In this document: positions 40,343 to 56,552 of the stretch, piece after piece
How positions within the stretch are numbered: position 1 is the first letter of the stretch
How the letters are laid out: every line of letters begins with the position of its first letter
NCBI GenBank assembly: GCA_017459425.1
Contig: JAFUCZ010000030.1
Span: forward strand, 4,096-68,095
From: Bacilli bacterium
GTDB taxonomy: Bacteria; Bacillota_I; Bacilli_A; RF39; UBA660
Reading direction: 5' to 3'
DNA: 64,000 nucleotides
Notes under the pieces: generated by a model
Databases searched by the model: none
Told to the model about the DNA's origin: nothing
Seen by the model: only the letters and a program-made list of their open reading frames with translations
Made by a program: the position numbers and the translations under genes

Positions 40343-40375
40343 TGTAAAGTAGTTGCAAAGTGTATTTAATTTAAA

Positions 40376-40404: not shown

Positions 40405-40435
40405 AAAAATGTATAAGAGTAAGGTGGTGAGGTAA

Positions 40436-40639: not shown

Positions 40640-40659
40640 TTAAAAGAGAGGTGTAACTT

Positions 40660-41100
40660 ATGAAACAAAGTATTGGACAATCAGTATCAATTAATATAAT
40701 TGTTATATTCCTTGTTATTATGTTTGCGTTCATTGCTGGTATTTTAAGTTACACAAAAGCTTTTAAGGTAAATAGTAATATTAGTAAAGCTATTGAAACT
40801 AGTGAAGGATATAATAAAGTTTCAAAAAAAGAAATTGATAGGTTATTAACGGGACTGGGATATGTAAAAATGCCAGTTTCTTGTTCTGAAAAGGAAGATT
40901 CTGTTTTAGTAAATGATGGAAGCGAAGGTATATGTGTATATAAAATAAAAAATGACGTTAATGATTTGCATTATAGTTATAGAATAACTACATATATTAC
41001 TTTTGAAATTCCATTAATTGGACAAACTTTGCGTGTTCCTATTAATAGTAAAACAGATGATATTTATCGCTTTCAATATGTAGAAGAAGAGGGTGAGTAA
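40660..41100 (+). CDS. TadE-like pseudopilin
   Basis: Leader MKQSIG followed by helix QSVSINIIVIFLVIMFAFIAGIL and a roughly 110-aa globular domain. Paralog of the next ORF. Confidence 0.55.
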   Translation: MKQSIGQSVSINIIVIFLVIMFAFIAGILSYTKAFKVNSNISKAIETSEGYNKVSKKEIDRLLTGLGYVKMPVSCSEKEDSVLVNDGSEGICVYKIKNDVNDLHYSYRITTYITFEIPLIGQTLRVPINSKTDDIYRFQYVEEEGE

Positions 41101-41589
41101 ATGAAAGAATCAATTGGCAATACGTTAATACTTAACATTGTTATTGTTTTTGTAATAGTATTTATAGGCCTATTTGTTACTTCAATTACTTATTCAAAAG
41201 GATATAAAGTCAAAAATAGAATGATTGAAATAATTGAAAAGAAGTATCCAACTTGTGGTTCTGATATTGATGATTGTAATAAGTCTATAATGAATCAAAT
41301 TGAGTTGGAATTAAATAAAATTGGTTATAGAGGTGCGTATGGTAATTACAGTAAACAAACATGTGAAAATCATTTGAAAATTCCTGAAAATGTTGATTAT
41401 TCAGTAAAGTTTAGTGATAAATATCAGGTTTGCTTTGCACTTATTAATACTAAAGGCAGAGATAATAACCCATATGTTTATTATGCTGTAAATGCTTATA
41501 TGTATTTAGATTTACCTGTTATTGGTGATAGGTTACAAATACCTGTTCGAGGTGAGTCTAAAACTTTTATACCAGGATTAACTAGTTAA
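41101..41589 (+). CDS. TadE/TadF-like pseudopilin (paralog)
   Basis: Leader MKESIG followed by helix NTLILNIVIVFVIVFIGLFV. Shared C-terminal pattern (LPVIGDRLQIPVRGESK versus IPLIGQTLRVPINSKTD). Confidence 0.55.
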   Translation: MKESIGNTLILNIVIVFVIVFIGLFVTSITYSKGYKVKNRMIEIIEKKYPTCGSDIDDCNKSIMNQIELELNKIGYRGAYGNYSKQTCENHLKIPENVDYSVKFSDKYQVCFALINTKGRDNNPYVYYAVNAYMYLDLPVIGDRLQIPVRGESKTFIPGLTS

Positions 41590-41601
41590 TGGAGGGATAT
41601 C

Positions 41602-42597
41602 ATGAATGTTATTGTTGCTAATAAGTATCAAACTATGCTTCAAGGTTTAGATATTGATATTATTAAAACTATGTATGGTGAGTATGATGCTGATGAAATT
41701 GTATCTACATTTCAAAATTTTTATTTTCAACGAATGATTCTTGATATTACAGCTATTAAAAATTATAAAGATATTACTAATTTACAAAAATTATCCATTT
41801 CGCTTGATATGGATAAAGTGATTTTATTACTAGACGATTCGCCTGAGAGTACATCACCAGCATATCTATCTCAATTAATATCTATGGGTATATATAATTT
41901 TACTAAGGATATTGAGGGTATTATGTATTTATATAATAATCCTAATAGTTATAGGGATGTTGCGCATATTCATCAGTTAAATAGTATTCAGCCTACATAT
42001 AATGATGATTCTAATACTGCTGTTGAAAGTTTTGATGAAACAAAATCTCAAAGGATAATTGGTATTACTAATTTGTCAAAACAATCTGGGGCTACAACGC
42101 TTACATATATGATGAAAAATCAATTAAAACAAAAATACAGTGTAGTAGCACTTGAAGTCGATAAAAGAGAATTTATGTATTTTAATGATAAAGAACTTTT
42201 AAGTACTGTTAGTACAGCCGTTTCTGGTATTGTAGCTAAAAACAGTGATAAAGAAGTAATATTAATTGATACAAATGGCAGTAAAGAAGCAGAAAAATTA
42301 TGTACTGATATTATATATTTATTAGAACCTTCTACCATAAAGTTAAATAGGCTTTTATATACAGATAGAAACTTTATGACTAAAAATAAAAATAATAAGG
42401 TTGTATTAAATCAAAGTTTGTTAAATTCAAACGATGTTTCTGATTTTGAATATGAATCTAATTTGAAAATATTTTGTAATGTTCCCCCTCTTAATGAAAG
42501 AGATAAAGATATTACACCTTTAAATAAATTGTTGACAAAATTAGGGTTTACAAGATTTGCGGATGATGAACAAAAGAAGAAAAAAGGGTTTTTTTAA
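41602..42597 (+). CDS. tadZ: TadZ/CpaE-like pilus localisation protein with degenerate ParA/MinD-type P-loop
   Basis: Receiver-like N-terminal domain followed by IIGITNLSKQSGATTLTYMM, where KGGxGK(T/S) would be expected. The position in a Tad cluster supports the call. Confidence 0.5.
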   Translation: MNVIVANKYQTMLQGLDIDIIKTMYGEYDADEIVSTFQNFYFQRMILDITAIKNYKDITNLQKLSISLDMDKVILLLDDSPESTSPAYLSQLISMGIYNFTKDIEGIMYLYNNPNSYRDVAHIHQLNSIQPTYNDDSNTAVESFDETKSQRIIGITNLSKQSGATTLTYMMKNQLKQKYSVVALEVDKREFMYFNDKELLSTVSTAVSGIVAKNSDKEVILIDTNGSKEAEKLCTDIIYLLEPSTIKLNRLLYTDRNFMTKNKNNKVVLNQSLLNSNDVSDFEYESNLKIFCNVPPLNERDKDITPLNKLLTKLGFTRFADDEQKKKKGFF

Positions 42598-42620: not shown

Positions 42621-42727
42621 TTTTTTGTAAAAATATATAGTTAATATTACAATATAGATTGTGACAATGCATATTTTTATTGATAAAAAACAATTGTTTT
42701 GCTATAATATGTTTAGCGGAGGTAATT

Positions 42728-43819
42728 ATGAAAGCTATTAAAGAATTTATAAGATTAAATAAAAAAATGTTTTATGTTTTTTGTGCTGTTATAGGTACAT
42801 TTATATTATTGTTAATTATTTTAGTGGTTGTAAAATTGGTTAAAGGTACTAAAATTAGTTATGATAAATTACAAGATAGAATGGTTACTGCAGCAGAAAA
42901 TTATTATGACGATAATCCTAAAACATTACCCAAAAATGAAGGTGAAGAAATAAGTGTTTCAATTGATACATTAGTCGATGAAGGATATTTAAGTTCATTA
43001 GAAAGATTAGTTGATGCAACATGTCGTGGTAATGTAATGGTTAAGAAAAACGGTGATCAATACATGTATTATCCATCTTTAGATTGTGGTAGTGAATATA
43101 AAACTAGAAGTTTAGGATCTATCATAACTGATCAAAGTAATGTTGTTGAATCTGGTGACGGATTATATAAATATAATGATGGCTATGTGTTTAGAGGTGA
43201 ATACGTAAATAATTATGTATCATTTGCTGATAGTGTATGGAGAATTATTAGTATAGATAATGCTGGAAATATTAGAATGATAAATGAAAAAGAAGAAAAT
43301 ACATATAATACTTGGGATGATAGATATAATATACATGAAAATAGATCTGTTGGAATAAACAATTATGATTTAAGTAGAATCAAAAAAAGCTTAGAAGAAA
43401 TATATGATGAATATGATAAAGAGGAAAAAAGACATATTATTAAACAAAATGTATGTGTACAAGGAAAGAGTGAATCTGATTCTTCAATTAACACTCACTT
43501 TTCATGTTCAAGTGTAGTAAGCAATCAATATGTAGGTGTTATAAGTATTAGTGATTTTGCACTTGCTAGTATTGATTCAAATTGTACAAGTATTTATAGT
43601 GATTCATGTTCAAATTACAATTATTTATATCCATTTATAAGTAATATGTGGACTAGTACTCCATATAGTGGCAATTCTTATCAAGCATATTATGTTGATT
43701 CATATGTGGATGTATCGAATGCTGAAAATATGAAGAGAATTTATCAAGTAATATCAATATCTGGCAAAGAGATTTATAAATCTGGTGCTGGTACATTAGA
43801 TAATCCATATAAATTATAA
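42728..43819 (+). CDS. N-terminally anchored extracytoplasmic protein, function unknown (links the pilus and T4SS modules)
   Basis: GGAGG RBS before ATG 42728. TM FYVFCAVIGTFILLLIILVVV. Ectodomain with several Cys and the GLYKYNDGYVFRGEYVNNYVSFADSVWRIISID block. Confidence 0.5.
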   Translation: MKAIKEFIRLNKKMFYVFCAVIGTFILLLIILVVVKLVKGTKISYDKLQDRMVTAAENYYDDNPKTLPKNEGEEISVSIDTLVDEGYLSSLERLVDATCRGNVMVKKNGDQYMYYPSLDCGSEYKTRSLGSIITDQSNVVESGDGLYKYNDGYVFRGEYVNNYVSFADSVWRIISIDNAGNIRMINEKEENTYNTWDDRYNIHENRSVGINNYDLSRIKKSLEEIYDEYDKEEKRHIIKQNVCVQGKSESDSSINTHFSCSSVVSNQYVGVISISDFALASIDSNCTSIYSDSCSNYNYLYPFISNMWTSTPYSGNSYQAYYVDSYVDVSNAENMKRIYQVISISGKEIYKSGAGTLDNPYKL

Positions 43820-43854: not shown

Positions 43855-43883
43855 TTGACAATTTTTGATAAATGATATATTAT
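43855..43883 (+). promoter_or_regulatory. Putative sigma-A promoter of the VirB2-like gene
   Basis: Consensus TTGACA (43855-43860), 17-nt spacer, TATTAT (43878-43883). GGGAGGA RBS before ATG 43908. Confidence 0.45.
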
Positions 43884-43907: not shown

Positions 43908-44249
43908 ATGACAAATTTATTTAATGTGTTAGCTAGCTGTGGTAGTTTAACTTTTGATGCAAAATTACCTCAAACTACTTCTTTACTTGTAACAATTGTT
44001 CAAGTTGCAGTTCCAATTTTACTTATTTTCTTTGGAATGTTAGATTTAGGTAAAGCAGTAATTGCTCAAAAAGAAGATGAAATTAAAAAAGGACAACAAA
44101 CTTTTATAAAAAGAATAATCGCTGCTGTTATAGTATTCTTTGTAGTAGTTGTAGTTAAATTAGTAATTGGTTTAGTGGCTGATGACTCTGCAAAATCAGG
44201 TATAACAGGATGTATTGATTGTTTTATTAGTAATAAATGTGGTAAATAA
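43908..44249 (+). CDS. VirB2/TrbC-like (pilin-like) conjugal-transfer membrane protein, paralog A
   Basis: Two-TM hairpin core (LVTIVQVAVPILLIFFGMLDLGKAVIAQKEDEIKKGQQTFIKRIIAAVIVFFVVVVVKLVIGLV) shared with 54625 and 55897. Sits directly before the PrgI-like and VirB4 genes. Confidence 0.55.
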   Translation: MTNLFNVLASCGSLTFDAKLPQTTSLLVTIVQVAVPILLIFFGMLDLGKAVIAQKEDEIKKGQQTFIKRIIAAVIVFFVVVVVKLVIGLVADDSAKSGITGCIDCFISNKCGK

Positions 44250-44331
44250 AAAAACAATGATAAAAAAACTTTATTATTGTTTTTTTTTATGTTATAATAT
44301 TAAATGTAATAATATAGAATAGGGGTGGCAT

Positions 44332-44571
44332 ATGTTTTTAATTCCTGCAAACAGTAAAAAATCAATGCTTATATTTGGGCTTTTTAATACATTTGATTTA
44401 ATACTTGTATCTACTGGCATTGCAATAACTTTAGTATTATTGTTAGTTTTACCAATTGATCAAATGTTGTTTGCAATACTTGCAATTTTACCAGGTGTTA
44501 TTTGTGCATTTTTGGTTCTTCCGGTGCCAAATTACCACAATATTTTAACGGTTATTAAGTCTACTTTTTAA
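44332..44571 (+). CDS. PrgI/VirB3-like small membrane protein
   Basis: 79 aa with two TMs (MLIFGLFNTFDLILVSTGIAITLVLLLVL; FAILAILPGVICAFLVLPV). Sits immediately upstream of VirB4, as in Gram-positive T4SSs. Confidence 0.6.
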   Translation: MFLIPANSKKSMLIFGLFNTFDLILVSTGIAITLVLLLVLPIDQMLFAILAILPGVICAFLVLPVPNYHNILTVIKSTF

Positions 44572-44620
44572 TTTTTTACAAATAGGCAAAAATTCGTATG
44601 GAAAGGTTGGTGTTTTAACG

Positions 44621-45166
44621 ATGGCAAAGATGATACAGAGCAAGTACACGAATGATAATATTCCTGTACAAAGTATTACAAATGGGATGATTTATTTAGA
44701 TAATAAGCAAAAAGTTACAGGTATTAAAATACAACCACGTAATATTTTTATCCTTGATTATGAATCTCAAAATGCTATAGTCAATAATTTAAAAGATGTG
44801 TACAATATTATTGATTATGAATTTTGGATAATTGCTGCCGATAGACCAGTCGATATAAATGTGTATTTATCTCAACTTCAATTACTTTTTAATTCTACGA
44901 ATAGCCAAATAAGAAGAAAGATGATATTAGAAGATATAAATAAGGCAAATATGTTTATGAATAATAACATTGTTGATACTGAATATTATTTATTATTTAA
45001 AGAAAAAAGTGATGATGTTATTCAAAAACGTATACGTAATTTAATTAATGCTTTTGCATCAGCTGGACTTAATACTAAACAAGTTACTAATGATGATTTA
45101 AGAATAATTTTGGATAATTTCTTAAATGGTGGTACTACTACTACTTTTGGGACGGTGATTAGTTAA
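44621..45166 (+). CDS. virB4: VirB4-family ATPase, N-terminal domain encoded as a separate ORF
   Basis: IPVQSITNGMIYLDNKQKVTGIKIQPRNIFILDYESQNAIVNNL... matches the N-terminal domain of Gram-positive VirB4 proteins (Tn916 Orf16/PrgJ type, from memory). The stop overlaps the next ATG (TAATG). Confidence 0.7.
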   Translation: MAKMIQSKYTNDNIPVQSITNGMIYLDNKQKVTGIKIQPRNIFILDYESQNAIVNNLKDVYNIIDYEFWIIAADRPVDINVYLSQLQLLFNSTNSQIRRKMILEDINKANMFMNNNIVDTEYYLLFKEKSDDVIQKRIRNLINAFASAGLNTKQVTNDDLRIILDNFLNGGTTTTFGTVIS

Positions 45167-46950
45167 TGGATATAAAGACTCAGATTGCTCCAAAGGGGCT
45201 TGAATTTAAAGCTAATGAATTTATTATTAGTGATAAGTATGCTACTATTTTAACAGTTGTATCATATCCTAGATATATTCAACCTGGCTATTTAGCGCAA
45301 CTAACTAGTATGTCAGGAATTAAGGTAGTAATTAAACATATACCTTTACCATTTAGTTCTATTCGTAAAATGTTAAATAAAGAAATAGCTGATTTAAAAG
45401 CTAGATATCAACAAGAAAGCGATAAAACTATTCAAGAAAGAATTCGTCAAGATTATGAATCACTAGAGCAATTTATTCAAATGCTTGCAGCTAGTCAATC
45501 TAAAATTTACGATTTTCAAATGCATATAATGATTACTGCTGATTCTCAAGATGAATTAACAAGTAAAAAATTACAAGTAAGAAGTTATTTAGAAGCAATG
45601 GAAATGAGAGCGTTCCCTTTAAGATTTGAACAAGAAAAGGTTCTAAAATCGATTATTCCAATATATTCAAAACAAGATATTGAAGATAGAATTGGTACAC
45701 CAATACCTTCTCCAACGCTTGCTGCAATGTATCCATTTATATTTGATAGCATTAAAGATCCAGGCCTTTCTACATTACTTGGCGTAGATTTTTCTGGAGG
45801 TGTAATTTTATTTAATCAATTCTTATATCAAATTAGAAAAGAACATAATAGAAATAATGCCAATTTAATTATACTTGGTACATCAGGAAGTGGTAAATCT
45901 ACTGCTGCTAAATTAATGTTAAGAACTCACATTAGAAATGGATGTCAGGTTGTCGTAATTGACCCAGAGGGTGAATTAGAAGAAATGGCTAAACTTTATG
46001 ATGGAAGTTTTATAGATCTTGGTAAAGGTGGAGAGTATGGAATGGTAAATCCACTTGAAGTTGTAATTGATGCAGATGAAGATGAGATGCAACAAGGTCT
46101 TGGGTATACAGTACTTACTCGTACTTTACAAACTATAAAAGCATTCTTTAAGTATTATGATCCAAGTGCTACTGAAGATGTTATTACTATGTTTAGTGAA
46201 ATAGTTCAAGAAACATATAGAAGATTTGGAATGGATTTTAATACTGATTATTCTAAATTTACTTCAAGTGACTATCCTACATTTAAAGATGTTTATGCTA
46301 CAGTGCGCGGAAGATTATCTTCGATGGTTGAAAAAACTCACGAAAAAGATATATTAGAGAGACTTGAACTAAAAATTAGACCGATTATAACTGAACTTAG
46401 ATATTATTTTGATGGTCATACCACTATAAAACCCGATAGTGATTTTATAGTATTTAATATAAAAGAATTAATGAATGCGGATATTAATATCAGAAATGCA
46501 TTATTCTTTAACATTTTAAAATATGCTTGGGGACTTACACTTAATAAAAATGTAAATACTATTTTAGAGGTTGATGAAGCACACGTATTATTATCGGGTA
46601 ATAATACTTTAGGAGCTGATTTCTTAGCTCAAATTCAAAGACGTGCACGTAAATATAATACTGGTACAATTATAATTACACAACAACCAAGTGATTTCTG
46701 TGATCCATCAGTTATCACACAAGGAAAAGCTATATTTGATAATGCATCTTATTATTTAATAATGGGTCTTAAAAAACAAGCTGTAGAAGATTTAGGAATG
46801 CTTGTTGATTTAAATGATAATGAAAGAGATAGCATTAAGAAATATAATCAAGGTGAAGCATTATTTGTATGCGGAAGCAGACGTATGCGTATAAATGTAG
46901 TTGTAAGTGAACAAGAGTTAGATTCATTTGGATCTGGCGGTGGATTATAA
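45166..46950 (+). CDS. virB4: VirB4-family conjugative ATPase, C-terminal (motor) part
   Basis: IAPKGLEFKANEFIISDKYATILTVVSYPRYIQPGYL, Walker A GTSGSGKST, Walker B ILEVDEAHVLL. Confidence 0.85.
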   Translation: MDIKTQIAPKGLEFKANEFIISDKYATILTVVSYPRYIQPGYLAQLTSMSGIKVVIKHIPLPFSSIRKMLNKEIADLKARYQQESDKTIQERIRQDYESLEQFIQMLAASQSKIYDFQMHIMITADSQDELTSKKLQVRSYLEAMEMRAFPLRFEQEKVLKSIIPIYSKQDIEDRIGTPIPSPTLAAMYPFIFDSIKDPGLSTLLGVDFSGGVILFNQFLYQIRKEHNRNNANLIILGTSGSGKSTAAKLMLRTHIRNGCQVVVIDPEGELEEMAKLYDGSFIDLGKGGEYGMVNPLEVVIDADEDEMQQGLGYTVLTRTLQTIKAFFKYYDPSATEDVITMFSEIVQETYRRFGMDFNTDYSKFTSSDYPTFKDVYATVRGRLSSMVEKTHEKDILERLELKIRPIITELRYYFDGHTTIKPDSDFIVFNIKELMNADINIRNALFFNILKYAWGLTLNKNVNTILEVDEAHVLLSGNNTLGADFLAQIQRRARKYNTGTIIITQQPSDFCDPSVITQGKAIFDNASYYLIMGLKKQAVEDLGMLVDLNDNERDSIKKYNQGEALFVCGSRRMRINVVVSEQELDSFGSGGGL

Positions 46951-46964
46951 TTTTGTAAAATAAT

Positions 46965-46998
46965 AAGCAATCATATATTGTTAATGATTGCTTTTTTT
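46965..46998 (+). terminator. Rho-independent terminator
   Basis: 10-bp stem aagcaatcat/atgattgctt, 9-nt loop, then a T-run. Confidence 0.7.
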
Positions 46999-47050
46999 GA
47001 TATAATAAGATGGGGAAAAAGATTTAAAAATGAATTAGGAGGAACAATAT

Positions 47051-49072
47051 ATGTTAGATTCTTTTGGAACAGATACTATAAGAGGTATTTTCGCACTTTT
47101 AGATAGCTTAGTTTATAATTTAATAGGTGTTGTTTATGAATTTATAAAAAGGCTTGCTGATATACAATTATTTGGAACAAGTGAAATATCACAATTTTCC
47201 ACTAAAATATATGGCATTATGGGGTTATTCATGCTTTTTAAAGTGTCTTTTTCACTTCTTAATTATATAGTAGATCCTGATTCTTTTTCTGATAAAAGTA
47301 AAGGGGCAACTACCATCGCCAAAAATATAATTATAGTTTTGGTTTTAATAATTTTAGCTCCTTTTGCATTTGATTTGATGACTGATGCTCAAAATATTAT
47401 TTTAGATGAAAAGATTCTTGAACGATTTATATTTAGTTCTGATGGCGGTGAAGATGGAAATTTTGTTGATGAGCTTAGTTTTCAAATGAACGAATTAGTA
47501 TGTGATGATCATGTTGCTAAGGCTGCAAGTGATGGAGATTTTATCGCACTTCAAATATTTAAAGGTTTTTATCAACCAGAACCATATTATTTAAATCACT
47601 ATAGTTTAGATGATATACAAGAAGAATTATACGATGGTGATGCGGGTGTTTATTGTTCTGAAGGAAAGATGACAGTTGATGATTATTTGGTGTCAGATGT
47701 ATATAATGATGCACAGCCAGGAACCGGTGATGAAGATTATTATACTGTTGATTATGTATTTTTATGGTCGACGATAGTTGGAGTTGTGGTGCTATTACTA
47801 TTTATAAATGTATGTATTGAGATTGCAAAACGTGCGGTGAAATTAGGATTTTTACAACTTATTGCACCAATTCCAATTATTTCATATGTTGATCCAAAGT
47901 CGGGTAAAGATGGAATGTTTAAAAAATGGTTGAAGCAGCTAGGAAGTACTTGGGCTAGCTTATTTATTAGACTGGGTGCAATATATTTTGCTGTATATAT
48001 AATTGAAATTGTATGTAATAAATTGAGCGATGAAAATATTTTTATCGAAGTATTTATAATTATTGGATGTTTATTATTTTCAAAGGAGCTTCCAAAACTA
48101 ATTGAAGATTTAATCCCTGGATTAAAAATGGGAGGAAATTTTACTTTAAATCCAATGAAAAACTTACGTGAAAATATTGCAGGATATAATACAATAAAAG
48201 CTGGTGCTGCCGGTGTTGGCGGATTCGTTGCTGGTGGATTAGGTGGTGCTGCCGCAAATATCTGGGGAGCAAGAGTGCAAAATAGAAATGTAAAAAAGCA
48301 ATTAGCTGATGAAAATCTTACTGCTGGAACAAAAGAATACAAAAAAAGATTTAAAGAACTTCATGGTAATACTGGCTTTGGATACGCTTCTAGTATAATT
48401 GCAGGGGCAACTAGTTCTAGTTTTAGATCATTTTGGGCTGGTGTTAAAGGTGAAGGTAAAAAAGGAATTAGAAAATCGGCAGCTGAGGGTGTTACAGGTG
48501 CATCGCTTGCTCGTAATCAAAGAGATGCAGGTTATAATTTAAGATCAAAAATATATGATTCAGCTACAGATGTTGCAAAGATTAAAGATAGTTATGGAAC
48601 AACAGACGTATTAAAAGGGCAACTTAGAGATTATCAAAGACAACGTGATAATGCACAAAGAGATGAAAATACTTTTGCACAATTCTTTAGAGATCGAATC
48701 AATGCCGTTGAAAACCAAAAGGCTGGTGTAGCAGAAGGATTAATGAAAGTATTTGATAATGCATTTGATTCGACTACAAATAAATATGTAGAAAAAACTT
48801 ATACGGATTATAGAGATTTAGCTGGTAAAGAGGCGTGGATGTCATATATGCATCAAAATGAAGACGATTGGAATGCATTAAGTGATATAGATAAAAATCG
48901 CGATATGGATATGCTTTCACATTTGAATTTAGTTGCTAATGAGTCAGAATTTAATTCAATTAATAATGCTTATAGACAATATAATGAAAGTGACTTACAA
49001 ATCAAAGGTCTTGATAGAAAAATTAAATCTACGGAAGAAAATCTTAGAAAAAAATCAACTAAGGGTCAATAA
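47051..49072 (+). CDS. VirB6/TrbL-like polytopic T4SS channel protein with C-terminal coiled-coil extension
   Basis: About seven TMs (IYGIMGLFMLFKVSFSLL, IIIVLVLIILAPFAF, IVGVVVLLLFINVCIEIA, FLQLIAPIPIISYV...), a Gly-rich segment GAAGVGGFVAGGLGGAAANIWG, then a charged tail. Confidence 0.6.
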   Translation: MLDSFGTDTIRGIFALLDSLVYNLIGVVYEFIKRLADIQLFGTSEISQFSTKIYGIMGLFMLFKVSFSLLNYIVDPDSFSDKSKGATTIAKNIIIVLVLIILAPFAFDLMTDAQNIILDEKILERFIFSSDGGEDGNFVDELSFQMNELVCDDHVAKAASDGDFIALQIFKGFYQPEPYYLNHYSLDDIQEELYDGDAGVYCSEGKMTVDDYLVSDVYNDAQPGTGDEDYYTVDYVFLWSTIVGVVVLLLFINVCIEIAKRAVKLGFLQLIAPIPIISYVDPKSGKDGMFKKWLKQLGSTWASLFIRLGAIYFAVYIIEIVCNKLSDENIFIEVFIIIGCLLFSKELPKLIEDLIPGLKMGGNFTLNPMKNLRENIAGYNTIKAGAAGVGGFVAGGLGGAAANIWGARVQNRNVKKQLADENLTAGTKEYKKRFKELHGNTGFGYASSIIAGATSSSFRSFWAGVKGEGKKGIRKSAAEGVTGASLARNQRDAGYNLRSKIYDSATDVAKIKDSYGTTDVLKGQLRDYQRQRDNAQRDENTFAQFFRDRINAVENQKAGVAEGLMKVFDNAFDSTTNKYVEKTYTDYRDLAGKEAWMSYMHQNEDDWNALSDIDKNRDMDMLSHLNLVANESEFNSINNAYRQYNESDLQIKGLDRKIKSTEENLRKKSTKGQ

Positions 49073-49092
49073 TGTAATAGGTGGTGATTTGA

Positions 49093-51324
49093 TTGGCTGA
49101 AAATAATAATAGTAATAAAGAAATTGTTAACTCCAATAATGGGGTTAACAATTTAACTTCATCAGGCAATGAAGTCACAAGAAAAGATGCTGATCAAAAA
49201 TTAGATAGGGCAGGTAGTGATGCTTTACAAAAAATGGGTGTTCCTAAATCTGCCGCAGATAAAGCTATAAAGAATAATGGAGGAATGTTTTCACCTGCTA
49301 ATTTACCGGGCAATAAATTGGTTAAAAATAAAAGTAGGGATGCATTATCTAATGTACTTAATAAAAATAAAAATAGATTTCAAAACAATAATTCAAATTC
49401 AAATTTAAATATGAACAACGATGAAGAAAATAGCAATGAAAAACCTTCAGGAGATTTAAATGAAAATAAAATTCAGGAATCAAATGGCTTTAAAAAAGTT
49501 TTATCAAATGGTTTAACAAACAAAATAGGTGGTAATTTAACTGGCAGTATTTTTGGCAAAGTTAAAACTAAAATATATTTATATTTAATTGCTGCGAGTA
49601 TACCTGTTATATTTTTATTTCTTATTATCATTTTAATTGCAGGTGGTGGCGAAGAAGAAAAGAGTAAAGCTGATGATTATTTTAGTGGTGAAATGTCTGA
49701 AGAAGAGCTAGAAAGCTATTTAAAATCTGCTGGATATTGTGATGGTAACGATTGTAGTAATGCTCTTAAATATTATAAAACAATTGAAAGTAGTTTAGTT
49801 ACTGTTTCAAGGAACGAAAGAACTTATTATGCCAATTTGGTAATGGCAATTACAGGGTATGGTAGAAAAAGTAATGAGTTATTTATAATTAATTCTGACG
49901 AGATAGATGAAGTTGCAAAAAAACTAGTACAATTGAATTATTCTTCTTCAACTGATTTATCAAAATTTAATGAATTAAAAGATTATATTGTTGGAGAAAA
50001 TGGATATATTGATACTTTTAGACCTGATTTGAAAGATAAAAAAGAAAAGGCTTATAACGCTATGATTGGCAATGCATCTAAAGAAAATAAGAATACTAAA
50101 CTTGCAACTAAAAAGAAACAACGTTCAAACAGCAATGGGTCAAGATGTATTTATAATGTAAATGGTGAATCTCAAGATATAAAGGTACAATTAACAGAGT
50201 GTACTAATAGTGCATCACCTAGTACTCCTACTGTTGGAAGTCCAATGGATTTAGAGGATTATGTAAGAGGAGTATTATATGCTGAATCTTGTGTAAATAT
50301 AAATTCGAGTTATTGTAGTAGTAATGGATGGTCAATAGAGGTAGTAAAAACTCATGCAGTTGCAATTAGAAGTTTTGTACTTGCTGTTAATAGAAATGTA
50401 GGAGATGCTACTGGCGAGGGGCTTGGAACTGTTACTAAAGGTATAGCTCGTATTCAAAGTTGTACAAATAGACAAGTATACTGTAGTGTAGATTATGGAT
50501 GTTCAGAAAATTCAAACAGAACAATGGTTCCAGGTACTGCCGGTAATATTTTAAGTGGGCATTTTGGACCTATGACAGATTCATTACAGCGTGAAATATT
50601 GGAACAAGTTATAACTGAAACTCAAGGTAAAGTGTTGTATGATGGATCTGATATTGTACCTGGTAGTTATGATGCTTGGAATGGTGTTCCGACATGGAAA
50701 AAACTTGCAAATGAAGGTAATAACTATAATGAAATATTAGTTAAGTATTACTCTGCTTATAGACATGTGCCTATTACTGTAGCGACTATTGGTAAGTGTA
50801 CTTCCTCAAATATTTCTGATTATGATTGGAAGCAAACAGATCCTAGATGGGGTAGTGTATTACTTGGAACAGGTACTGCAAATATTCATAATATTGGTTG
50901 TTTGTTAACATCAACTGCTATTCAAATCGCACGTTCTGGAACAGAGGTTACTACTCCAGACTTTGATCCAGGTGTACTTGGTAATTGTATGAGACAAGCG
51001 GGTGCATTTGGTTCAAATGGTGCGTTACTTGCATGGGCTGCTAATAAACAACACTGCGCAGCACCTAATTTTGATTTTGATTATATGACTTCTGCAACTG
51101 GTTCAAAGAGTGCTATATCTAGCAAACTAGCTAGTATACTTTCGGACTCTAATAGTTATGTGATTATAAGTGTAAATAGTGGTGGTCACTGGGTTGCAGT
51201 AATAGATGTAAATGGTAGTGAAGTAACTATAATTGATCCTTGGCCAACAGGATATACTAGTTTATGGGATTTTAATATAGGTGGTACTGGTGGACAAGTT
51301 GCTGTATTTAAAAAGAAAGATTAG
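49093..51324 (+). CDS. T4SS-associated cell-wall hydrolase: SpoIID-like lytic domain plus C39-like/papain-fold peptidase domain
   Basis: TTG start after AGGTGGTGA. N-rich cytoplasmic head, TM (IYLYLIAASIPVIFLFLIIILIA), SpoIID-like block (DLEDYVRGVLYAESC...VVKTHAVAIRSFVLA...CTNRQVY), and a C-terminal DPRWG...NIGCLLTSTAIQ...GGHWVAVIDV...IIDPW. Confidence 0.65.
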   Translation: MAENNNSNKEIVNSNNGVNNLTSSGNEVTRKDADQKLDRAGSDALQKMGVPKSAADKAIKNNGGMFSPANLPGNKLVKNKSRDALSNVLNKNKNRFQNNNSNSNLNMNNDEENSNEKPSGDLNENKIQESNGFKKVLSNGLTNKIGGNLTGSIFGKVKTKIYLYLIAASIPVIFLFLIIILIAGGGEEEKSKADDYFSGEMSEEELESYLKSAGYCDGNDCSNALKYYKTIESSLVTVSRNERTYYANLVMAITGYGRKSNELFIINSDEIDEVAKKLVQLNYSSSTDLSKFNELKDYIVGENGYIDTFRPDLKDKKEKAYNAMIGNASKENKNTKLATKKKQRSNSNGSRCIYNVNGESQDIKVQLTECTNSASPSTPTVGSPMDLEDYVRGVLYAESCVNINSSYCSSNGWSIEVVKTHAVAIRSFVLAVNRNVGDATGEGLGTVTKGIARIQSCTNRQVYCSVDYGCSENSNRTMVPGTAGNILSGHFGPMTDSLQREILEQVITETQGKVLYDGSDIVPGSYDAWNGVPTWKKLANEGNNYNEILVKYYSAYRHVPITVATIGKCTSSNISDYDWKQTDPRWGSVLLGTGTANIHNIGCLLTSTAIQIARSGTEVTTPDFDPGVLGNCMRQAGAFGSNGALLAWAANKQHCAAPNFDFDYMTSATGSKSAISSKLASILSDSNSYVIISVNSGGHWVAVIDVNGSEVTIIDPWPTGYTSLWDFNIGGTGGQVAVFKKKD

Positions 51325-51332
51325 GTGAACTC

Positions 51333-52118
51333 ATGGAAAATAAAAAAAAGTACTTTATTTTTGGAATAATCATTGTAGTTTATTTAGTTTTAACAGTGAC
51401 ATTTTTGATAATAAAAAATAGTAATGATAAGAATAATGAAAAATATCTGATTATTGATCAATATGGATTATTTATGAAAAAAAATAATAAATGGTCAACA
51501 TTTACTAAAAAAAATAGCGACTATTATATGTTTAAAAATTACGATATTTTTGATGGTCAAACATATTTAGGAAATTATACTCTTCAATATAATGATAGAT
51601 GGTATTTATGGGATGATAATAATAATTCAATACAGTATGATGATAAAATACTTGCATATCGAGGAAATGAACAAATGAAATTAAAAGTACTAGAAAATGT
51701 TGAATTAAATTCAGGCGATAATGAAATTATAAATTCTGCATTGAAAAAGATAAGTGTTAACGGTTATAGTAATTTATCTAAATCAAAAAAATATCAACTA
51801 GATTTAGATGGGGATAATAATTATGAATATGTTTATGAAATATCAAATTTAGATAGTTTTAATGAACCTGATAAATATTTTTCAATTGTATTTATTTATA
51901 ATGGAAAAGATATAGATATTATAAAAAATAGTGTTGGGAAAGAAGAAGAGTCTTTACAACTAGCAAGATTTAGTTTAGAATATAATATTAGTTTTGGAAG
52001 TGATAATTATAATCATATAATTATACAAACAATTTATTTTTCAAAACCTGATAAAACAAAATATTCAATTTATAAATATAATAAAAATAAGTTAGATTTA
52101 GTTATAGAAAATAAATAG
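51333..52118 (+). CDS. Bitopic protein in the VirB8/TcpC/PrgL position (assignment by position and topology only)
   Basis: Single N-terminal TM (YFIFGIIIVVYLVLTVTFLII) and a roughly 230-aa ectodomain, located between the hydrolase and the coupling protein. Confidence 0.35.
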   Translation: MENKKKYFIFGIIIVVYLVLTVTFLIIKNSNDKNNEKYLIIDQYGLFMKKNNKWSTFTKKNSDYYMFKNYDIFDGQTYLGNYTLQYNDRWYLWDDNNNSIQYDDKILAYRGNEQMKLKVLENVELNSGDNEIINSALKKISVNGYSNLSKSKKYQLDLDGDNNYEYVYEISNLDSFNEPDKYFSIVFIYNGKDIDIIKNSVGKEEESLQLARFSLEYNISFGSDNYNHIIIQTIYFSKPDKTKYSIYKYNKNKLDLVIENK

Positions 52119-52127
52119 GTGATTCTT

Positions 52128-54554
52128 ATGAAATTAAAATTTAGAGCTGAAAAAAAGGATGTAATAATATTTGTTATTTTTTGCATATTGCTTTTATATT
52201 TAGTTGCAATCGGAGTAGTAAATATAGCTACTTTTGCAAGTGAATCAAAATTTTCTGGATTAAATCCACTACCTGCTTTTAGTAGCGAATATTTCGCACC
52301 TACTATGGTATTTTTCTTAATAGCGCTTATTGCTATAATAAGTAGTGTATCTTCAAAGTTTTTTGAAAGAGAAAAAGGAATTGGAGTTGTAACTGCTCCA
52401 AAAGAATCTAAAGGATATGCTAGATGGGCAACTGCTAAAGAAATGAAGAAAAAATTAAAAATGGTTGACCCTAAAGCAATTGATAGTGAAGTTGCGGGTA
52501 TTCCTTTAATTAATAATGGTAAAGAAATATGGGTAGATGATAGTGAGTGGCACAATTTAATTATTGGTTCTACTGCATCAGGTAAAACTGAAAGTATTGT
52601 TCAACCTATGGTTAAGTCATTGATGAAAAAAGGTGAATCAATGATTATAACTGACCCTAAAGGTGAAATATACGAAAGAAATGGTGAAGAGTTAAAGGAA
52701 CGCGGTTATAATGTAGTTTTACTTAATTTTCGTGATCCACAAAGAGGTAATTGTTGGAATCCGATAACTTTGCCATATAGTTTATATAAAGAAGGAAAAA
52801 AAGATAAAGCAACAGAGTTGCTAGACGATTTAGCTAAAAACATTCTATATGATGAAGCTAATAAGAATGGGGACCCATTTTGGGAAAATACATCAGCTGA
52901 TTATTTTGCTGGATTATGTTTAGCTTTATTTGATGATGCTCGTGAAGAACAAATTAATTTAAATACAATTAATTTAATGACTACTGTTGGTGAAAATAAA
53001 TTAGGTGGAACTACTTATATGAAAGAGTACTTTAGTGATAAAGATCAAGGTTCTCCTGCATATATAAATGTTGCAAGTACTTTGATGGCACCAAGTGAAA
53101 CAAAGGGGAGTATTCTATCAGTATTTAAACAAAAAATTAAATTATTTTCATCTAAAGAAAATTTATCTGAAATGTTAAGTCATACTGATTTTGATATGAA
53201 AGATATAGGAAGAAAAAAAACAGCGGTATTTATTATAATTCATGATGAGAAAAAAACATACCATCCACTTGCTACAATTTTTGTAAAACAATGTTATGAG
53301 ACTTTAATAGATGTAGCATTTGAAAACGGTGGTAAATTACCTCAAAAAACTAACTTTATTCTTGATGAGTTTGCTAATATGCCTCCTTTAAAAGATGCGG
53401 ATGCAATGGTAACAGCAGCGCGTTCTCGTTTAATAAGATTTACATATATTATTCAAAACTTTGCTCAATTAACTGAGGTATATGGAAAAGAAAAAGGAGA
53501 CACTATTAAAGGTAACTGTGGTAACTGGATTTATTTAATTAGTACAGAACTTGCAGCACTTGAAGAAATAAGTAAAATGTGCGGAGATGTTAAGTCTAAA
53601 AAAGATGATAAAACAGATAGTAGGCCTCTTGTTACTGTTTCTGACTTACAAAGACTGCCAATGTATACAATGATTATATTGCGTGCACGTAGTATGCCTT
53701 TTAAAACTAAAATGACACCAGCTTGGAAAATGGATCAAGAAAATATGTGGGGCGTAAGTTATCCAAAAGCAACTTATCCAAATCGTGAAAAACAAAAAGT
53801 AGAGATATTTGATATTAAAGCTTATGTTGACGAAAAAAAAGATAAAAAAATAAGAGAAATGTTAAATAAAGGCTCTAATGACATGCCTAAAAATCCATTT
53901 ATGGATCAAATGCCAGGTATGGGTATGTTCCCACCAATGTTTGGTACAAATAATCATCAAAGAAATGAAAATAATAATTTTAATGTGGATGATTTATTAA
54001 AAAGAATAGACGCAAAAATTGCAGAACTTGAAGAAGAAGAAAAAAATGAAGCACAAGATAAGATTAAAGAACAAATTAATGATATTGATTTGGTGCCTGA
54101 TAAATTTAATGATGAAATAAAGGCACTAGATAAAATAGAAGATGATAAAATAATTCAAAATGATATTAATAATACTGATTTGAAATTAAATTTGCCAGAT
54201 TCAAGTATTAAAACTAATTCAAATACTCAAACTCAAAATAGTATTGAATTTGATAAATCAAATTCAAGTGTTAAACCAGATATTAATTCAAAAATAGAAA
54301 CTCAAATTAATAATCTTGATTTAATACCTGACAAGTTAAATGATGAAATAAAGGTATTAGACAAAATAGAAGATGATAAAGTTAATTTGAATGAATTTAA
54401 GATTAATACGTCTAATATTAAATTTCCAGAACAATTAAACAACAACAAAAATGTTGTAATTCCAAGTGAAGAAATAATAGAAGAAACAAATGATGGTAAT
54501 AATGTTGTTACTGATGATCAATTTTTTGATGATTTCTTTAGTGATGATGAATAA
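52128..54554 (+). CDS. virD4: VirD4/TraG-type type IV coupling protein with long repeat-containing acidic C-terminal tail
   Basis: Two N-terminal TMs, Walker A GSTASGKTE, Walker B NFILDEFANMP, ARSRLIRFTYIIQNFAQL. AGGTGA RBS before ATG 52128. Confidence 0.85.
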   Translation: MKLKFRAEKKDVIIFVIFCILLLYLVAIGVVNIATFASESKFSGLNPLPAFSSEYFAPTMVFFLIALIAIISSVSSKFFEREKGIGVVTAPKESKGYARWATAKEMKKKLKMVDPKAIDSEVAGIPLINNGKEIWVDDSEWHNLIIGSTASGKTESIVQPMVKSLMKKGESMIITDPKGEIYERNGEELKERGYNVVLLNFRDPQRGNCWNPITLPYSLYKEGKKDKATELLDDLAKNILYDEANKNGDPFWENTSADYFAGLCLALFDDAREEQINLNTINLMTTVGENKLGGTTYMKEYFSDKDQGSPAYINVASTLMAPSETKGSILSVFKQKIKLFSSKENLSEMLSHTDFDMKDIGRKKTAVFIIIHDEKKTYHPLATIFVKQCYETLIDVAFENGGKLPQKTNFILDEFANMPPLKDADAMVTAARSRLIRFTYIIQNFAQLTEVYGKEKGDTIKGNCGNWIYLISTELAALEEISKMCGDVKSKKDDKTDSRPLVTVSDLQRLPMYTMIILRARSMPFKTKMTPAWKMDQENMWGVSYPKATYPNREKQKVEIFDIKAYVDEKKDKKIREMLNKGSNDMPKNPFMDQMPGMGMFPPMFGTNNHQRNENNNFNVDDLLKRIDAKIAELEEEEKNEAQDKIKEQINDIDLVPDKFNDEIKALDKIEDDKIIQNDINNTDLKLNLPDSSIKTNSNTQTQNSIEFDKSNSSVKPDINSKIETQINNLDLIPDKLNDEIKVLDKIEDDKVNLNEFKINTSNIKFPEQLNNNKNVVIPSEEIIEETNDGNNVVTDDQFFDDFFSDDE
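54075..54380 (+). repeat. Two 75-nt coding repeats, 231 nt apart, in the T4CP tail
   Basis: 54075-54149 (INDIDLVPDKFNDEIKALDKIEDDK) and 54306-54380 (INNLDLIPDKLNDEIKVLDKIEDDK); most nucleotide positions are identical when aligned by eye. Confidence 0.8.
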
Positions 54555-54560
54555 TTTGAA

Positions 54561-54596
54561 AACTCTATAAAAACTATAGAGTTTTTATTTTTTTTA
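54561..54596 (+). terminator. Rho-independent terminator after the T4CP gene
   Basis: 9-bp stem aactctata/tatagagtt, loop aaaac, then a T-rich run. Confidence 0.7.
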
Positions 54597-54624
54597 ATGT
54601 ATAATTATATTATGGAGTGGTTAT

Positions 54625-55467
54625 ATGAAATATAAAAATTATTTATTAGGGTTATTATTTATATTTATGTGTTTCATTTGTGTTAATGGAGTTAGCGCAG
54701 ATGATAATAAAATTACACAAAAAATATGTGTGTATAAAATTGATGGTGGTGCTGTATCATTTGAAATAAAATCTAATCCAGATGGTTCAGATAAGTATAA
54801 ATATATTAGTGTTTTAAAAAGTAATGCTGGGAGCTTATTTGCAACTGATATTGCTAACTGGGATAAGGAAGATGATATAAATAGTTTTTCTGGTAGAGAG
54901 TATTTGACATCAAAAAATTTGTGCCCTAAACGTTTTGTAACATGTAAAAATAATTTTAATGTTAAAACTTCATGGTTTGCCTTTTCTAAATCAGACGCTC
55001 AAAAAATAAAAAATTCAAATGTTTGTGGGACATCGAATGATATTTCAATGTATACTCGTGATGATAAGGCTATATCAGCAATGGATAAAATAATAAAATC
55101 TGTGGAAGTAGCTTCCGATATTACTGATGCTGCGATTGAAGAATTTGATAAGTCATCTAATGAAGATAAAGACGATATTGAAGCTGTATGTGGAATTTTA
55201 ACTCCAAATGCACAGGAATTTATATATAGAATATTAGATTGGATAAAATATTTAGCTTTAGTACTTACTGTAGCTTTAAGTATATTAGATTTCTTTAAAG
55301 CTATGTCTAGTGAAGAAGATGATTCATTTAAAAAAGCAGCTTCAAAACTTACAAAACGAATAATAGTTGTAGTAGTGTTATTTTTACTACCTGTGTTACT
55401 TGAATTTGTACTTAAATTAGTTCATATTCAAGGAATAAATAGCAGTGATCCAATGTGTATGAAGTAA
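54625..55467 (+). CDS. Secreted protein with C-terminal VirB2/TrbC-like two-TM domain, paralog B
   Basis: Signal peptide ...FICVNGVSA/DD, a roughly 170-aa ectodomain with Cys, and a C-terminal core CGILTPNAQEFIYRILDWIKYLALVLTVALSILDFFKAMSSEEDDSFKKAASKLTKRIIVVVVLFLLPVLLEFVLKLV. Confidence 0.55.
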   Translation: MKYKNYLLGLLFIFMCFICVNGVSADDNKITQKICVYKIDGGAVSFEIKSNPDGSDKYKYISVLKSNAGSLFATDIANWDKEDDINSFSGREYLTSKNLCPKRFVTCKNNFNVKTSWFAFSKSDAQKIKNSNVCGTSNDISMYTRDDKAISAMDKIIKSVEVASDITDAAIEEFDKSSNEDKDDIEAVCGILTPNAQEFIYRILDWIKYLALVLTVALSILDFFKAMSSEEDDSFKKAASKLTKRIIVVVVLFLLPVLLEFVLKLVHIQGINSSDPMCMK

Positions 55468-55489
55468 GATAGATTTTTCTATCTTTTTT
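55466..55489 (+). terminator. Rho-independent terminator (paralogous to 56513-56536)
   Basis: Stem aagataga/tctatctt, loop tttt, then T6. Confidence 0.65.
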
Positions 55490-55546
55490 AGTTTAATATA
55501 TTTATTAATTGAGATATTAATTCATATATTGTATTAGGGTGGTTAT

Positions 55547-55834
55547 GTGAATGAAATTTCTATTGATAAAATTATTAAAAATATTAATAGTATAAATTTA
55601 ATTGATATTAGAAGTATAGAAAGTTTTAACAATAATCATATACCTGGAGCTAAGAATATTCCAATGGAGTCATTATTAATTAGTCCAAATATGTATTTAA
55701 AAAAAGATGAAAGATATTATATCTATTGTCAAAAAGGAATAAGTAGTAAAAAGATTTGTAATATATTAAAAAATTTAGGATATGATGTATATAGTATCAT
55801 AGGTGGTTATGAATCGTGGATATTAGAAAAATAA
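55547..55834 (+). CDS. Single-domain rhodanese (sulfurtransferase-like)
   Basis: LIDIRSIESFNNNHIPGAKNIP and active-site loop YCQKGISS. GTG start after AGGGTGG. Confidence 0.8.
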   Translation: MNEISIDKIIKNINSINLIDIRSIESFNNNHIPGAKNIPMESLLISPNMYLKKDERYYIYCQKGISSKKICNILKNLGYDVYSIIGGYESWILEK

Positions 55835-55896
55835 AACTCAAAATTATAGAGTTTTTTTTCTATTTATAGTATAATTATTCTAGATAGGATGGTTAT

Positions 55897-56511
55897 ATGA
55901 AAAAAAGGAATTTAATTTTACTATTAATAATAAGTGTTTTTTTAAGTATTTCAAATGTAAGTGCGGATGAAGCATGTAGTAGTATTACTGATGCAAGTAA
56001 AAAAAGTACATGTTTAGAATGTGTTAAAAAGTGTCCGAGTGATAAAAATTCAACAGCATATAATGAATGTTATAAAAAATGTCAAAACAATGCTGGGCAA
56101 TCTCAAGCGGCAGATCCAGATGCTGCTCAAGAAAGATGGGCAGAAAATTACATGGGGAATTATGTAAAATGTGGGAATAGTGGACCTATTCCAACTGCTT
56201 TTCCAATGTTAACTCGTGCTTTAATTAGACTTGTCCAAATACTTGCTCCGATTGTTTTAATAATTCTTGGGTCAATTGATTTTGCTAAAGCCGTTGCAAG
56301 TAGTGATGCAGACTTTTTAGATAAAGCAAAGAAAAAATTTGTAAGAAGGGTTATATCAGCTGTAGCAATATTTCTTGTATTTACAATTGTTAAGTTCATT
56401 ATAGCTAATATTTCAAGTGATAATGATGCCGTTAATTGTCTAGAATGCTTTATAAATAAAGCATCTAAATGTGATCCAGCAGCATATAGTAGTCATTATT
56501 CGTCAGAATAA
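55897..56511 (+). CDS. Secreted Cys-rich protein with C-terminal VirB2/TrbC-like two-TM domain, paralog C
   Basis: Signal peptide ...LSISNVSA/DE, a Cys-rich head (CSSITDASKKSTCLECVKKCPSDKNSTAYNECYKKC), core CGNSGPIPTAFPMLTRALIRLVQILAPIVLIILGSIDFAKAVASSDADFLDKAKKKFVRRVISAVAIFLVFTIVKFII, and a tail NCLECFINK. Confidence 0.55.
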   Translation: MKKRNLILLLIISVFLSISNVSADEACSSITDASKKSTCLECVKKCPSDKNSTAYNECYKKCQNNAGQSQAADPDAAQERWAENYMGNYVKCGNSGPIPTAFPMLTRALIRLVQILAPIVLIILGSIDFAKAVASSDADFLDKAKKKFVRRVISAVAIFLVFTIVKFIIANISSDNDAVNCLECFINKASKCDPAAYSSHYSSE

Positions 56512-56512
56512 T

Positions 56513-56536
56513 AAGATAGATTTTATCTATCTTTTT
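56513..56536 (+). terminator. Rho-independent terminator (paralogous to 55466-55489)
   Basis: 9-bp stem aagatagat/atctatctt, loop ttt, then a T-run. Confidence 0.65.
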
Positions 56537-56552
56537 CTAAAGGAGGTTTAAT

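Follow-up and report, generated by a model that had tools for sequence, protein, structure and literature searches.

According to a review of December 2025, VirB2 and VirB5 are missing from the type IV secretion systems (T4SSs) of Gram-positive bacteria, Patescibacteria excepted; in that group six divergent VirB2-like genes form an array that is essential, and the review regards the potential of these systems to make pili as unique among monoderms (PMC12857230). A 2025 survey reported that 2–11 VirB2-like genes are arrayed beside chromosomal MPF_FATA-like T4SSs of Patescibacteria that have no relaxase, and that the MPF_FATA systems of Firmicutes have no VirB2 (PMC12102498). An earlier reading of the DNA described here, made from the letters alone (the sequence-only reading), had likewise described Gram-positive T4SSs as lacking VirB2, which matches both sources (PMC12857230, PMC12102498). 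The window analysed in this study is a 64,000-nucleotide stretch of contig JAFUCZ010000030.1 (positions 4,096 to 68,095; assembly GCA_017459425.1) from a Bacilli bacterium, with ~25% G+C and nearly all genes on the plus strand. It carries a T4SS gene cluster and three genes, termed A, B and C, whose products have a two-helix core in common (Table 1). We give about an even chance to the interpretation that A, B and C are a lineage-specific expansion of VirB2-class two-helix T4SS subunits, in which A would form the shaft or core and B and C would be the variants that display heads. A VirB2-like way of working is suggested mainly by their architecture, predicted topology, gene position, cassette-style expression, arrays, and exclusive association with a T4SS in nearly all the loci examined. 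The interpretation offered in the sequence-only reading is partly supported: the evidence from context and head variability is strong, the homology to VirB2 is weak, and the structural comparisons carried little information.

For comparison across genomes, a scan of one genome per GTDB species was made, from which 76 loci were kept, and a hidden Markov model (HMM) of the A family was run against all open reading frames (ORFs) of 77 related loci (about 76 species) plus the window. The HMM search found 234 paralogs, usually 2–6 per locus. The Patescibacteria-type arrangement, at least two divergent pilin-like paralogs near an MPF_FATA-type VirB4 gene, was found both in the window (three paralogs) and in most of the 77 loci. 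The cluster is chromosomal, and no relaxase or integrase Pfam domain was found in its genes or in the scanned window ORFs outside it (nearly all those of at least 200 aa). The locus resembles the arrays of Patescibacteria of the candidate phyla radiation (Ca. Southlakia epibionticum and TM7x, with PF18895 or PF04956 matches) in being a chromosomal MPF_FATA-like T4SS of a monoderm with no nearby relaxase, in having several divergent two-helix paralogs near virB4, and in occurring together with a separate type IV or Tad-type pilus system (PMC12102498, PMC12857230). It differs in its host, which is a spore-forming low-GC Bacillota; in its paralogs, about a quarter of which carry ectodomains of 45–400 aa, one type of which is leaderless, and all of which have flanking Cys residues; in the physical fusion of the T4SS to a Tad-like cluster; and in a PF18895 similarity that is mostly below threshold. 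On this comparison, the locus reproduces the Patescibacteria design in a spore-forming Bacillota, with ectodomain fusion, the leaderless paralog, flanking Cys and Tad-like fusion as additions. A GerA/GerB/GerC spore-germination operon lies at 12910–16505 of the window on the minus strand, which indicates a spore-forming host with a cell wall despite the 'Tenericutes' or 'Mycoplasmatota' labels on many relatives.

The three paralogous ORFs with two transmembrane (TM) helices that the sequence-only reading had placed at 43908, 54625 and 55897 are all present, and BLASTP, the HMM and alignment agree on their relationship. BLASTP comparison gave 3e-20 for A and C (36% identity over 94 aa), 2e-9 for B and C, and 2e-6 for A and B, and the A-family HMM matched C with 82 bits and B with 31 bits. 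The common architecture is Cys-TM1-charged loop-TM2-Cys, to which B and C add a leader and an ectodomain. In the multiple alignment of the core, the Cys that precedes TM1, residue C189 of B, was nearly invariant, and D222, K225, A226, R245, F253 and the Cys after TM2, C278 (B numbering), were invariant; the D, K and A belong to the D(L/F)xKA motif, the R precedes TM2, and the F lies in TM2. Since the aligned signature residues include non-hydrophobic ones, the signal common to A, B and C is not hydrophobicity alone. A ends with CIDCFISNKC and C with CLECFINKASKC, and the tail of C after the hairpin contains C181, C184 and C192. A is the family member with the highest conservation, and it lies directly 5′ of the VirB3-position gene and VirB4, the position of VirB2-class genes in T4SS operons; this position is conserved in the related loci.

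B and C start with Sec-type leaders ending in VSA before DD (B) and DE (C), as read from their translations and in line with the signal peptides noted earlier for these two proteins; A has none. Leaders, called on charge, hydrophobicity and the AXA rule, are predicted in B, C and 148 of the 234 paralogs, and the A-type proteins (86 of 234) are without one. The ectodomain length given in the sequence-only reading, roughly 100–170 aa, holds for B (~163 aa) but not for C (~68 aa, residues 24–91). A lipoprotein reading of the 'LASC' stretch of A was rejected on the grounds that A has no basic or hydrophobic leader and that relatives carry non-lipobox residues before the Cys. The mean net charge among the paralogs was +1.1 in the loop, −1.1 in the N-terminal flank and −2.2 in the tail. 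By the positive-inside rule, a positive loop between negative outer flanks places the loop in the cytoplasm and both ends outside, and this predicted topology, which is that of VirB2 pilins in the membrane, would expose the heads of B and C at the cell surface. Each of the 233 full-length paralogs carries Cys residues on both sides of the hairpin, one immediately before TM1 and one or more immediately after TM2; the pattern is 1+3 in 179 proteins and 1+1 in 24, and the total is even in 211 of the 233. The extracellular ends may thus be tied together through a disulfide or a Cys4 metal site.

The AlphaFold2 model of A is a helical hairpin (helices 19–52 and 56–90) with a block-wise predicted local distance difference test score (pLDDT) of about 80–89. 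In the model of B, helices 194–228 and 232–266 are preceded by a disordered linker and a mixed alpha/beta head (residues 33–177; pLDDT about 70–80). The loop between the helices, ~25 residues long, is highly conserved, and its D, K, D, K, G, K and R positions are invariant. Each of the three proteins retains two predicted membrane helices, and the alternative offered in the sequence-only reading, that they are secreted substrates, is not supported.

Among the 234 paralogs, 86 are leaderless A-type proteins, 90 are leader-only, and 58 carry N-terminal heads of 45–400 aa. Searching 5.8 billion proteins returned more than 1,800 close relatives of A, four of C and three of B, and B is identical to one protein of an NCBI 'Bacilli bacterium' metagenome-assembled genome (MAG). 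The relatives of A are 110–145 aa long and come from gut MAGs labelled 'Bacilli', 'Tenericutes' or 'Firmicutes'; A-type relatives occur in 353 species-level genomes, mostly MAGs of uncultured gut Bacilli or "Tenericutes". The conserved gene order of the related loci starts with genes of unknown function of ~527, 215 and 942 aa, DUF5411, a 283-aa gene, TadA, TadB and TadC. It continues with flp, two tadE-like genes, a 331-aa gene, an array of leader- or head-bearing paralogs, a 379-aa gene and the A-type gene, which is often followed by a B-like paralog of 370–500 aa and then by the VirB6-like gene, the VirB3-position gene and two VirB4 ORFs; a hydrolase gene, a gene for a ~230-aa protein, and VirD4 close the order. 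The window shows a rearranged version, in which the array that elsewhere precedes the 379-aa gene is missing and VirD4 is followed by B (directly) and C. A B-like paralog, P0127, also follows VirD4 in the independent contig L082. The view of the core as a T4SS-associated module is therefore upheld, as the paralogs of the 77 loci lie between Tad-like genes and VirB3-like, VirB4 and VirB6-like genes, or directly after VirD4.

In the related loci, the median identity to the window proteins was 81% for VirB4 and 79% for the Tad ATPase, which indicates vertical inheritance under strong constraint rather than a mobile element. Contigs L007, L008, L014, L020, L025 and L079 are labelled Muribaculaceae or Bacteroidaceae and carry the low-GC Bacilli-type supercluster; they are probably mis-binned or mislabelled. 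Tandem head-bearing copies were seen at 6031–8826 of L025 (two of 309 aa with identical HMM scores and a third of 297 aa) and at 14978–17586 of L047 (401 and 412 aa, with identical core scores). From these recent tandem duplications, the arrays appear to be in active expansion.

The heads change much faster than the cores to which they are attached. Between B and its ortholog P0126, 89 of 92 core residues are identical without gaps (97%), compared with 58 of 131 head residues (44%) and 37 gap columns; between C and P0001, identity is 93/99 (94%) in the core and 38/68 (56%) in the head, with large insertions in P0001. For 18 inter-species pairs with a core identity of at least 70%, the median identity was 74% in the core and 21% in the head, and the head was less conserved than the core in 17 of them. 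The alignment of orthologs thus agrees with the proposal, made from the letters, of exchangeable or hypervariable heads on conserved cores. The heads group as one loose cluster and many singletons, and none of those in the 58 head-bearing paralogs matched a Pfam domain family. C gave a weak DUF7772 match of 19.9 bits, below the cut-off of 25, and a Foldseek search of the PDB with the B model returned nothing at E < 0.2 and no recognisable head fold. When the B head was searched against 1.84 billion representative proteins with phmmer, the only true homolog was that of P0126. Two further candidates were rejected: P0129, an FN3-repeat protein in which a short motif was summed over 12 repeats, and P0128, in which the match was a spurious 29-residue stretch. 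P0127 pairs a C-like Cys-rich module with a B-type core, a composition that indicates shuffling of modules between paralogs.

The flanks of B and C are paralogous as well. The motif TGGTTATRTGAA matches three times in the window against 0.05 expected, only at the starts of B, the rhodanese gene between B and C, and C. The hairpin AAGATAGATTTT(N)TCTATCTT occurs twice against 0 expected, only directly after B and directly after C. The −10-like box GTATAATTAT lies 5′ of both genes and is itself preceded by a hairpin and a T-run. These motif counts bear out the duplicated start contexts and terminators that had been noticed by reading the sequence. A has the strongest promoter match of the three paralogs, and the positions of its promoter and ribosome-binding site (RBS) support 43908, not 43872, as its start; the hairpin after A was missed by the terminator scanner because it has fewer than three G-C pairs. 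A is thus predicted to be a self-contained cassette too, and A, B and C would each form their own promoter-gene-terminator unit. Of the 77 related loci, 4 have a rhodanese homolog no more than 10 kb from the A-type gene, and in at least L008 it lies directly after VirD4.

Homology to VirB2/TrbC pilins, as proposed in the sequence-only reading, is weakly supported. The Pfam family PF18895 (T4SS_pilin; 71 model positions, curated gathering score 26.6 bits) was the one pilin family that recurred among the matches; it ranked first for A and B and second for C, and its model was covered end to end, with both helices and the loop, at positions 4–71 (A), 5–70 (B) and 10–71 (C). It was the top family by member count in scans of 42 A-family members (24 matches, best E 1.2e-5) and of 147 mixed paralogs (24 matches, best E 1.4e-6), and it ranked first or second for all four sub-family consensus sequences. 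Two relatives, P0026 and P0048, are labelled PF18895 in precomputed annotation; only a minority of the relatives come close to the threshold, and one paralog weakly matches PF16943 CagC.

Several results weigh against a VirB2-class assignment. The PF18895 scores of A (19.4 bits), B (17.3 bits) and C (15.1 bits) are all below the gathering score, and the attempt to raise the signal above noise through the four consensus sequences failed, with 20.9–24.1 bits, again below threshold. Unrelated membrane families score similarly or better (DUF621 24.5 bits; 7tm_1 20 bits), MamI matches 43 of the 147 paralogs with E-values down to 6.6e-5, and the E-values of MscL are also comparable; the sequence signal is accordingly close to the compositional noise of two-TM proteins. 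PF04956 (TrbC/VirB2) gave no match at E ≤ 1, a profile of 42 A-family sequences gave 0 matches to PDB sequences at E ≤ 10, and two consensus sequences matched only unrelated PDB proteins and no pilin. Foldseek comparison of the A model with the PDB returned no pilin, and its matches were generic TM hairpins at E > 1, HtrII among them; the two-helix fold is too simple to discriminate pilins. A is without the signal peptide typical of VirB2 and TraA. The loop of the paralogs exceeds that of known VirB2 pilins in length and, by far, in conservation, and could equally be the cytoplasmic docking site of a non-polymerising subunit. Finally, P0004, a protein of 145 aa with a leader and a core 48% identical to that of C, is encoded between housekeeping genes, RecX and a PrsA-like rotamase (8275–8712 in L083 and 8189–8626 in L084), with no T4SS gene within 8–10 kb. 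Given the weak similarity, the proteins were not assigned as formal members of PF18895 or VirB2.

Compared with VirB2 of Agrobacterium, TrbC of RP4 and TraA of F, the paralogs are alike in the small two-helix hairpin with a basic loop and both ends outside (predicted here), in the gene position just before virB3-virB4, and in ends that are possibly tied, by cyclisation in those pilins and through Cys residues here. They differ in the lack of detectable sequence or Foldseek similarity, in the missing signal peptide of A, and in the longer, highly conserved loop; to our knowledge, large head fusions are not a feature of VirB2, TrbC or TraA pilins. In the Mycoplasma integrative and conjugative element (ICE) with Mbov_0395 (NF045849), Mbov_0396 and Mbov_0397, the order of a pilin-like gene, a VirB6-like TM protein gene and VirB4 is that of the related loci, and the VirB4 of the window is closest to the Mbov_0397 model. 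The scores are far under the curated cut-offs, at 362 versus 590 bits for VirB4 and 16 versus 40 bits (E 0.007) for the NF045849 match of B; 7 of the 147 paralogs match NF045849 at E ≤ 0.01 (best 3.1e-4), fewer than match MamI. Unlike the Mycoplasma element, the present system is chromosomal and not an ICE, and its paralogs occur in arrays and with heads. The archaeal Ced and Ted DNA-import pili, reportedly described by Beltran et al. in 2023, are said to combine a VirB2-like hairpin, CedA1 or TedC, with a VirB4/HerA-type ATPase and a VirB6-like protein. They resemble the present system in the single-membrane cell and in a use other than plasmid export (proposed here), and the ATPases here gave weak CedD and CedB NCBIfam matches; there was no sequence or fold match to the solved CedA1 and TedC chains, and a VirD4-type coupling protein is present here. 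The VirB5 tip adhesin and the multi-copy variable VirB2 and VirB5 of the Bartonella Trw system are comparable as variable surface binding modules on a filament (proposed here) and in the amplification of paralogs together with sequence variation (PMC12857230). They differ in that no VirB5 homolog was found here and that the variable domain is fused to the hairpin rather than carried by a separate protein.

Under the interpretation of A, B and C as VirB2-class subunits, the machine would be a vertically inherited chromosomal T4SS of uncultured gut Bacilli. VirB4 and the VirB6-like protein would pull the hairpins out of the membrane and assemble them as a short stalk or pilus, which would cross the wall at an opening made by the SpoIID-type hydrolase. 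A would be the abundant subunit that builds the shaft, and the link between the flanking Cys residues of the hairpins may take the functional place of the cyclisation by which T-pilin and TrbC are joined head to tail. B, C and the members of the arrays, whose Sec-type leader would bring the N-terminal ectodomain outside the cell, would be built in as minor or tip subunits and present variable binding heads, taking the part that VirB5 has in Gram-negative systems. As no relaxase was detected in the window and vertical conservation is strong, cell-cell contact, uptake or delivery would be a more likely task of the machine than transfer of a plasmid or ICE. The specific proposal of a genuine VirB2-type filament with a leaderless, Cys-stapled shaft and swapped adhesin heads, built by a relaxase-less T4SS that is fused to a Tad-like cluster, is tentative, and we consider it possible but rather unlikely.

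The same family and machine may also work without a fibre, a reading we judge unlikely. Here the hairpin would be a non-polymerising inner-membrane anchor that docks on VirB6, VirB3 or VirB4 through its loop, the heads would be wall-spanning or surface adhesin modules, a T4SS-specific alternative to LPXTG adhesins such as PrgB, and A would be a headless structural copy. The extreme conservation of the loop suits a fixed protein-protein interface, the pilin similarity is below threshold and lacks a structural match, reviews describe Gram-positive T4SSs as using surface adhesins without VirB2 pili (PMC12857230, PMC12102498), and synteny fits an anchor as well as a pilin. An anchor gives no reason, however, for a headless, conserved and separately promoted A before VirB3 and VirB4 in every locus, it leaves the 90 leader-only headless paralogs unexplained, and conserved Cys residues on both extracellular flanks exceed what a plain anchor needs.

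The paralogs could instead be parts of the adjacent Tad-like pilus, as a membrane platform or accessory proteins, with the proximity to VirB4 resulting from cluster fusion. In most related loci the array does come directly after the tadE-like and 331-aa genes and before the 379-aa gene, but the proteins have neither a class III (prepilin peptidase) leader nor an N-terminal pilin helix, and their hydrophobic hairpin is C-terminal. Moreover, A always adjoins VirB6-like, VirB3-position or VirB4 genes, B-type genes come next after VirD4 in L082 as in the window, and the sole family matches cited are those to T4SS pilin-like models; we judge this explanation improbable. It is very improbable that the paralogs are generic small membrane proteins (holin-like or of a bacteriocin or immunity type) or T4SS cargo, with the pilin matches as compositional artefacts, for although MamI, DUF621, MscL and 7tm_1 reach comparable E-values, P0004 lies away from any T4SS gene, and a tblastn search of 72,556 plasmids with A gave no match, the T4SS synteny is conserved in 77 loci with VirB4 at the identity given above, two membrane helices argue against soluble cargo, and arrays of up to six paralogs with large ectodomains are unlike holins.

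The remaining T4SS genes of the window are listed in Table 1. The order of a pilin-like gene, a small TM protein gene and VirB4 that had been read at 43908–46950 is real, except that VirB4 consists of two ORFs, which overlap by base 45166. About 60 of the 77 related loci have the same split, as do further samples of this species, so that a frameshift or pseudogene was ruled out and VirB4 is regarded as a two-gene protein; it matches the Mollicutes/Firmicutes-type models NF045975 and NF045971. Neither the 79-aa VirB3-position protein nor the 261-aa protein gave a family match. On the other side of A, the Tad-like set comprises DUF5411, a T2SSE ATPase, TadB/C-like proteins, a 67-aa Cys-rich Flp-like pilin, two TadE-like proteins and the 331-aa protein. 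The Tad-like and T4SS genes together form a supercluster of ~25 kb with the same order in almost all related loci, the Tad side of which spans 31086–43819 of the window. Its conserved 527-, 215-, 942-, 283-, 331- and 379-aa proteins had no Pfam matches, and PDB sequence searches with the 527-, 942- and 379-aa neighbours found nothing. Housekeeping genes flank the cluster on both sides (SufBD, GerA/B/C, ScpA, pseudouridine synthases, RmuC), and RNase R and SmpB lie further along the same contig. An ORF6N-domain gene (18670–19554), a Bro-N-domain gene (58888–59706; both antirepressor-like) and a YhcG/DUF1016 nuclease-like gene (59814–60830) could be what is left of mobile elements close to the cluster, although no integrase was detected.

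Table 1. Coordinates of the paralogs, their cassette elements and neighbouring genes in the window
Feature	Position	Strand	Description
Tad-like pilus genes	36172..42597	+	Linked to the T4SS in nearly all related loci
379-aa protein, N-terminally anchored, Cys-containing	42680..43819	+	Separates the paralog array from the A-type gene in related loci
Predicted promoter of paralog A	43855..43883	+	Near-consensus sigma-70-type, 11/12 match to TTGACA-17-TATTAT, then AGGGAGG RBS
Paralog A	43908..44249	+	113 aa, leaderless two-helix hairpin; Cys 11, 102, 105, 111
AT-rich hairpin and T-run after A	44255..44288	+	Terminator-like; read by eye
Small two-TM membrane protein, VirB3/PrgI position	44332..44571	+	79 aa; kept in 61/77 loci
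VirB4 N-terminal part, separate ORF	44621..45166	+	181 aa; NF045975 positions 101-276
VirB4 P-loop ATPase part	45166..46950	+	594 aa; NF045975 (Mbov_0397 model) positions 295-891, E 3.6e-108
VirB6/TrbL-like polytopic membrane protein	47051..49072	+	PF19597 TrbL_4; weak NF045889 and NF045890 matches
Candidate cell-wall hydrolase	49093..51324	+	SpoIID-like domain; L082 ortholog also with CHAP
261-aa N-terminally anchored protein	51333..52118	+	VirB8 position a guess
VirD4-type coupling protein	52119..54554	+	PF02534 E 1e-53; NF045973, CD1115 family
Hairpin and T-run ending virD4, then −10-like box of cassette B	54563..54608	+	Box GTATAATTAT
Paralog B	54625..55467	+	280 aa; leader 1-25, ectodomain 26-188 (4 Cys), Cys189, hairpin 194-266, Cys278
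Terminator-like hairpin and T-run 3′ of B	55466..55491	+	AAGATAGA-TTTT-TCTATCTT
Single-domain rhodanese between B and C	55547..55834	+	Start context TGGTTATGTGAA common with B and C
−10-like box of cassette C	55869..55878	+	GTATAATTAT
Paralog C	55897..56511	+	204 aa; leader 1-23, Cys-rich ectodomain 24-91 (6 Cys), Cys92, hairpin
Terminator-like hairpin and T-run 3′ of C	56513..56538	+	AAGATAGA-TTTTA-TCTATCTT

A search of the literature on this lineage combined with T4SSs or pili returned nothing relevant, and no paper was found that describes this design. If the hairpins are true VirB2-class subunits, the Gram-positive exception would extend from Patescibacteria to a widespread lineage of gut Bacillota (at least 353 species-level genomes), and a second, independent clade would be available for testing whether a T4SS can build a pilus across a thick wall. 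No T4SS pilus would have been known before from a classical Gram-positive phylum, and the system would have a pilin-adhesin fusion that is undescribed for any T4SS, and the head-fused paralogs would represent a new route to the target specificity of a filament, with the roles of VirB2 and VirB5 in one polypeptide. The fast turnover of the heads resembles that of antigenic or host-range determinants. Strong vertical conservation, the chromosomal location and the lack of any relaxase detected in the window suggest a core lifestyle function rather than gene transfer, and such a role could bear on the cell-cell interactions of these uncultured gut bacteria. The filament would act in attachment between cells, in uptake or in delivery, as a parallel to the essential T4SS of epibiotic Patescibacteria.

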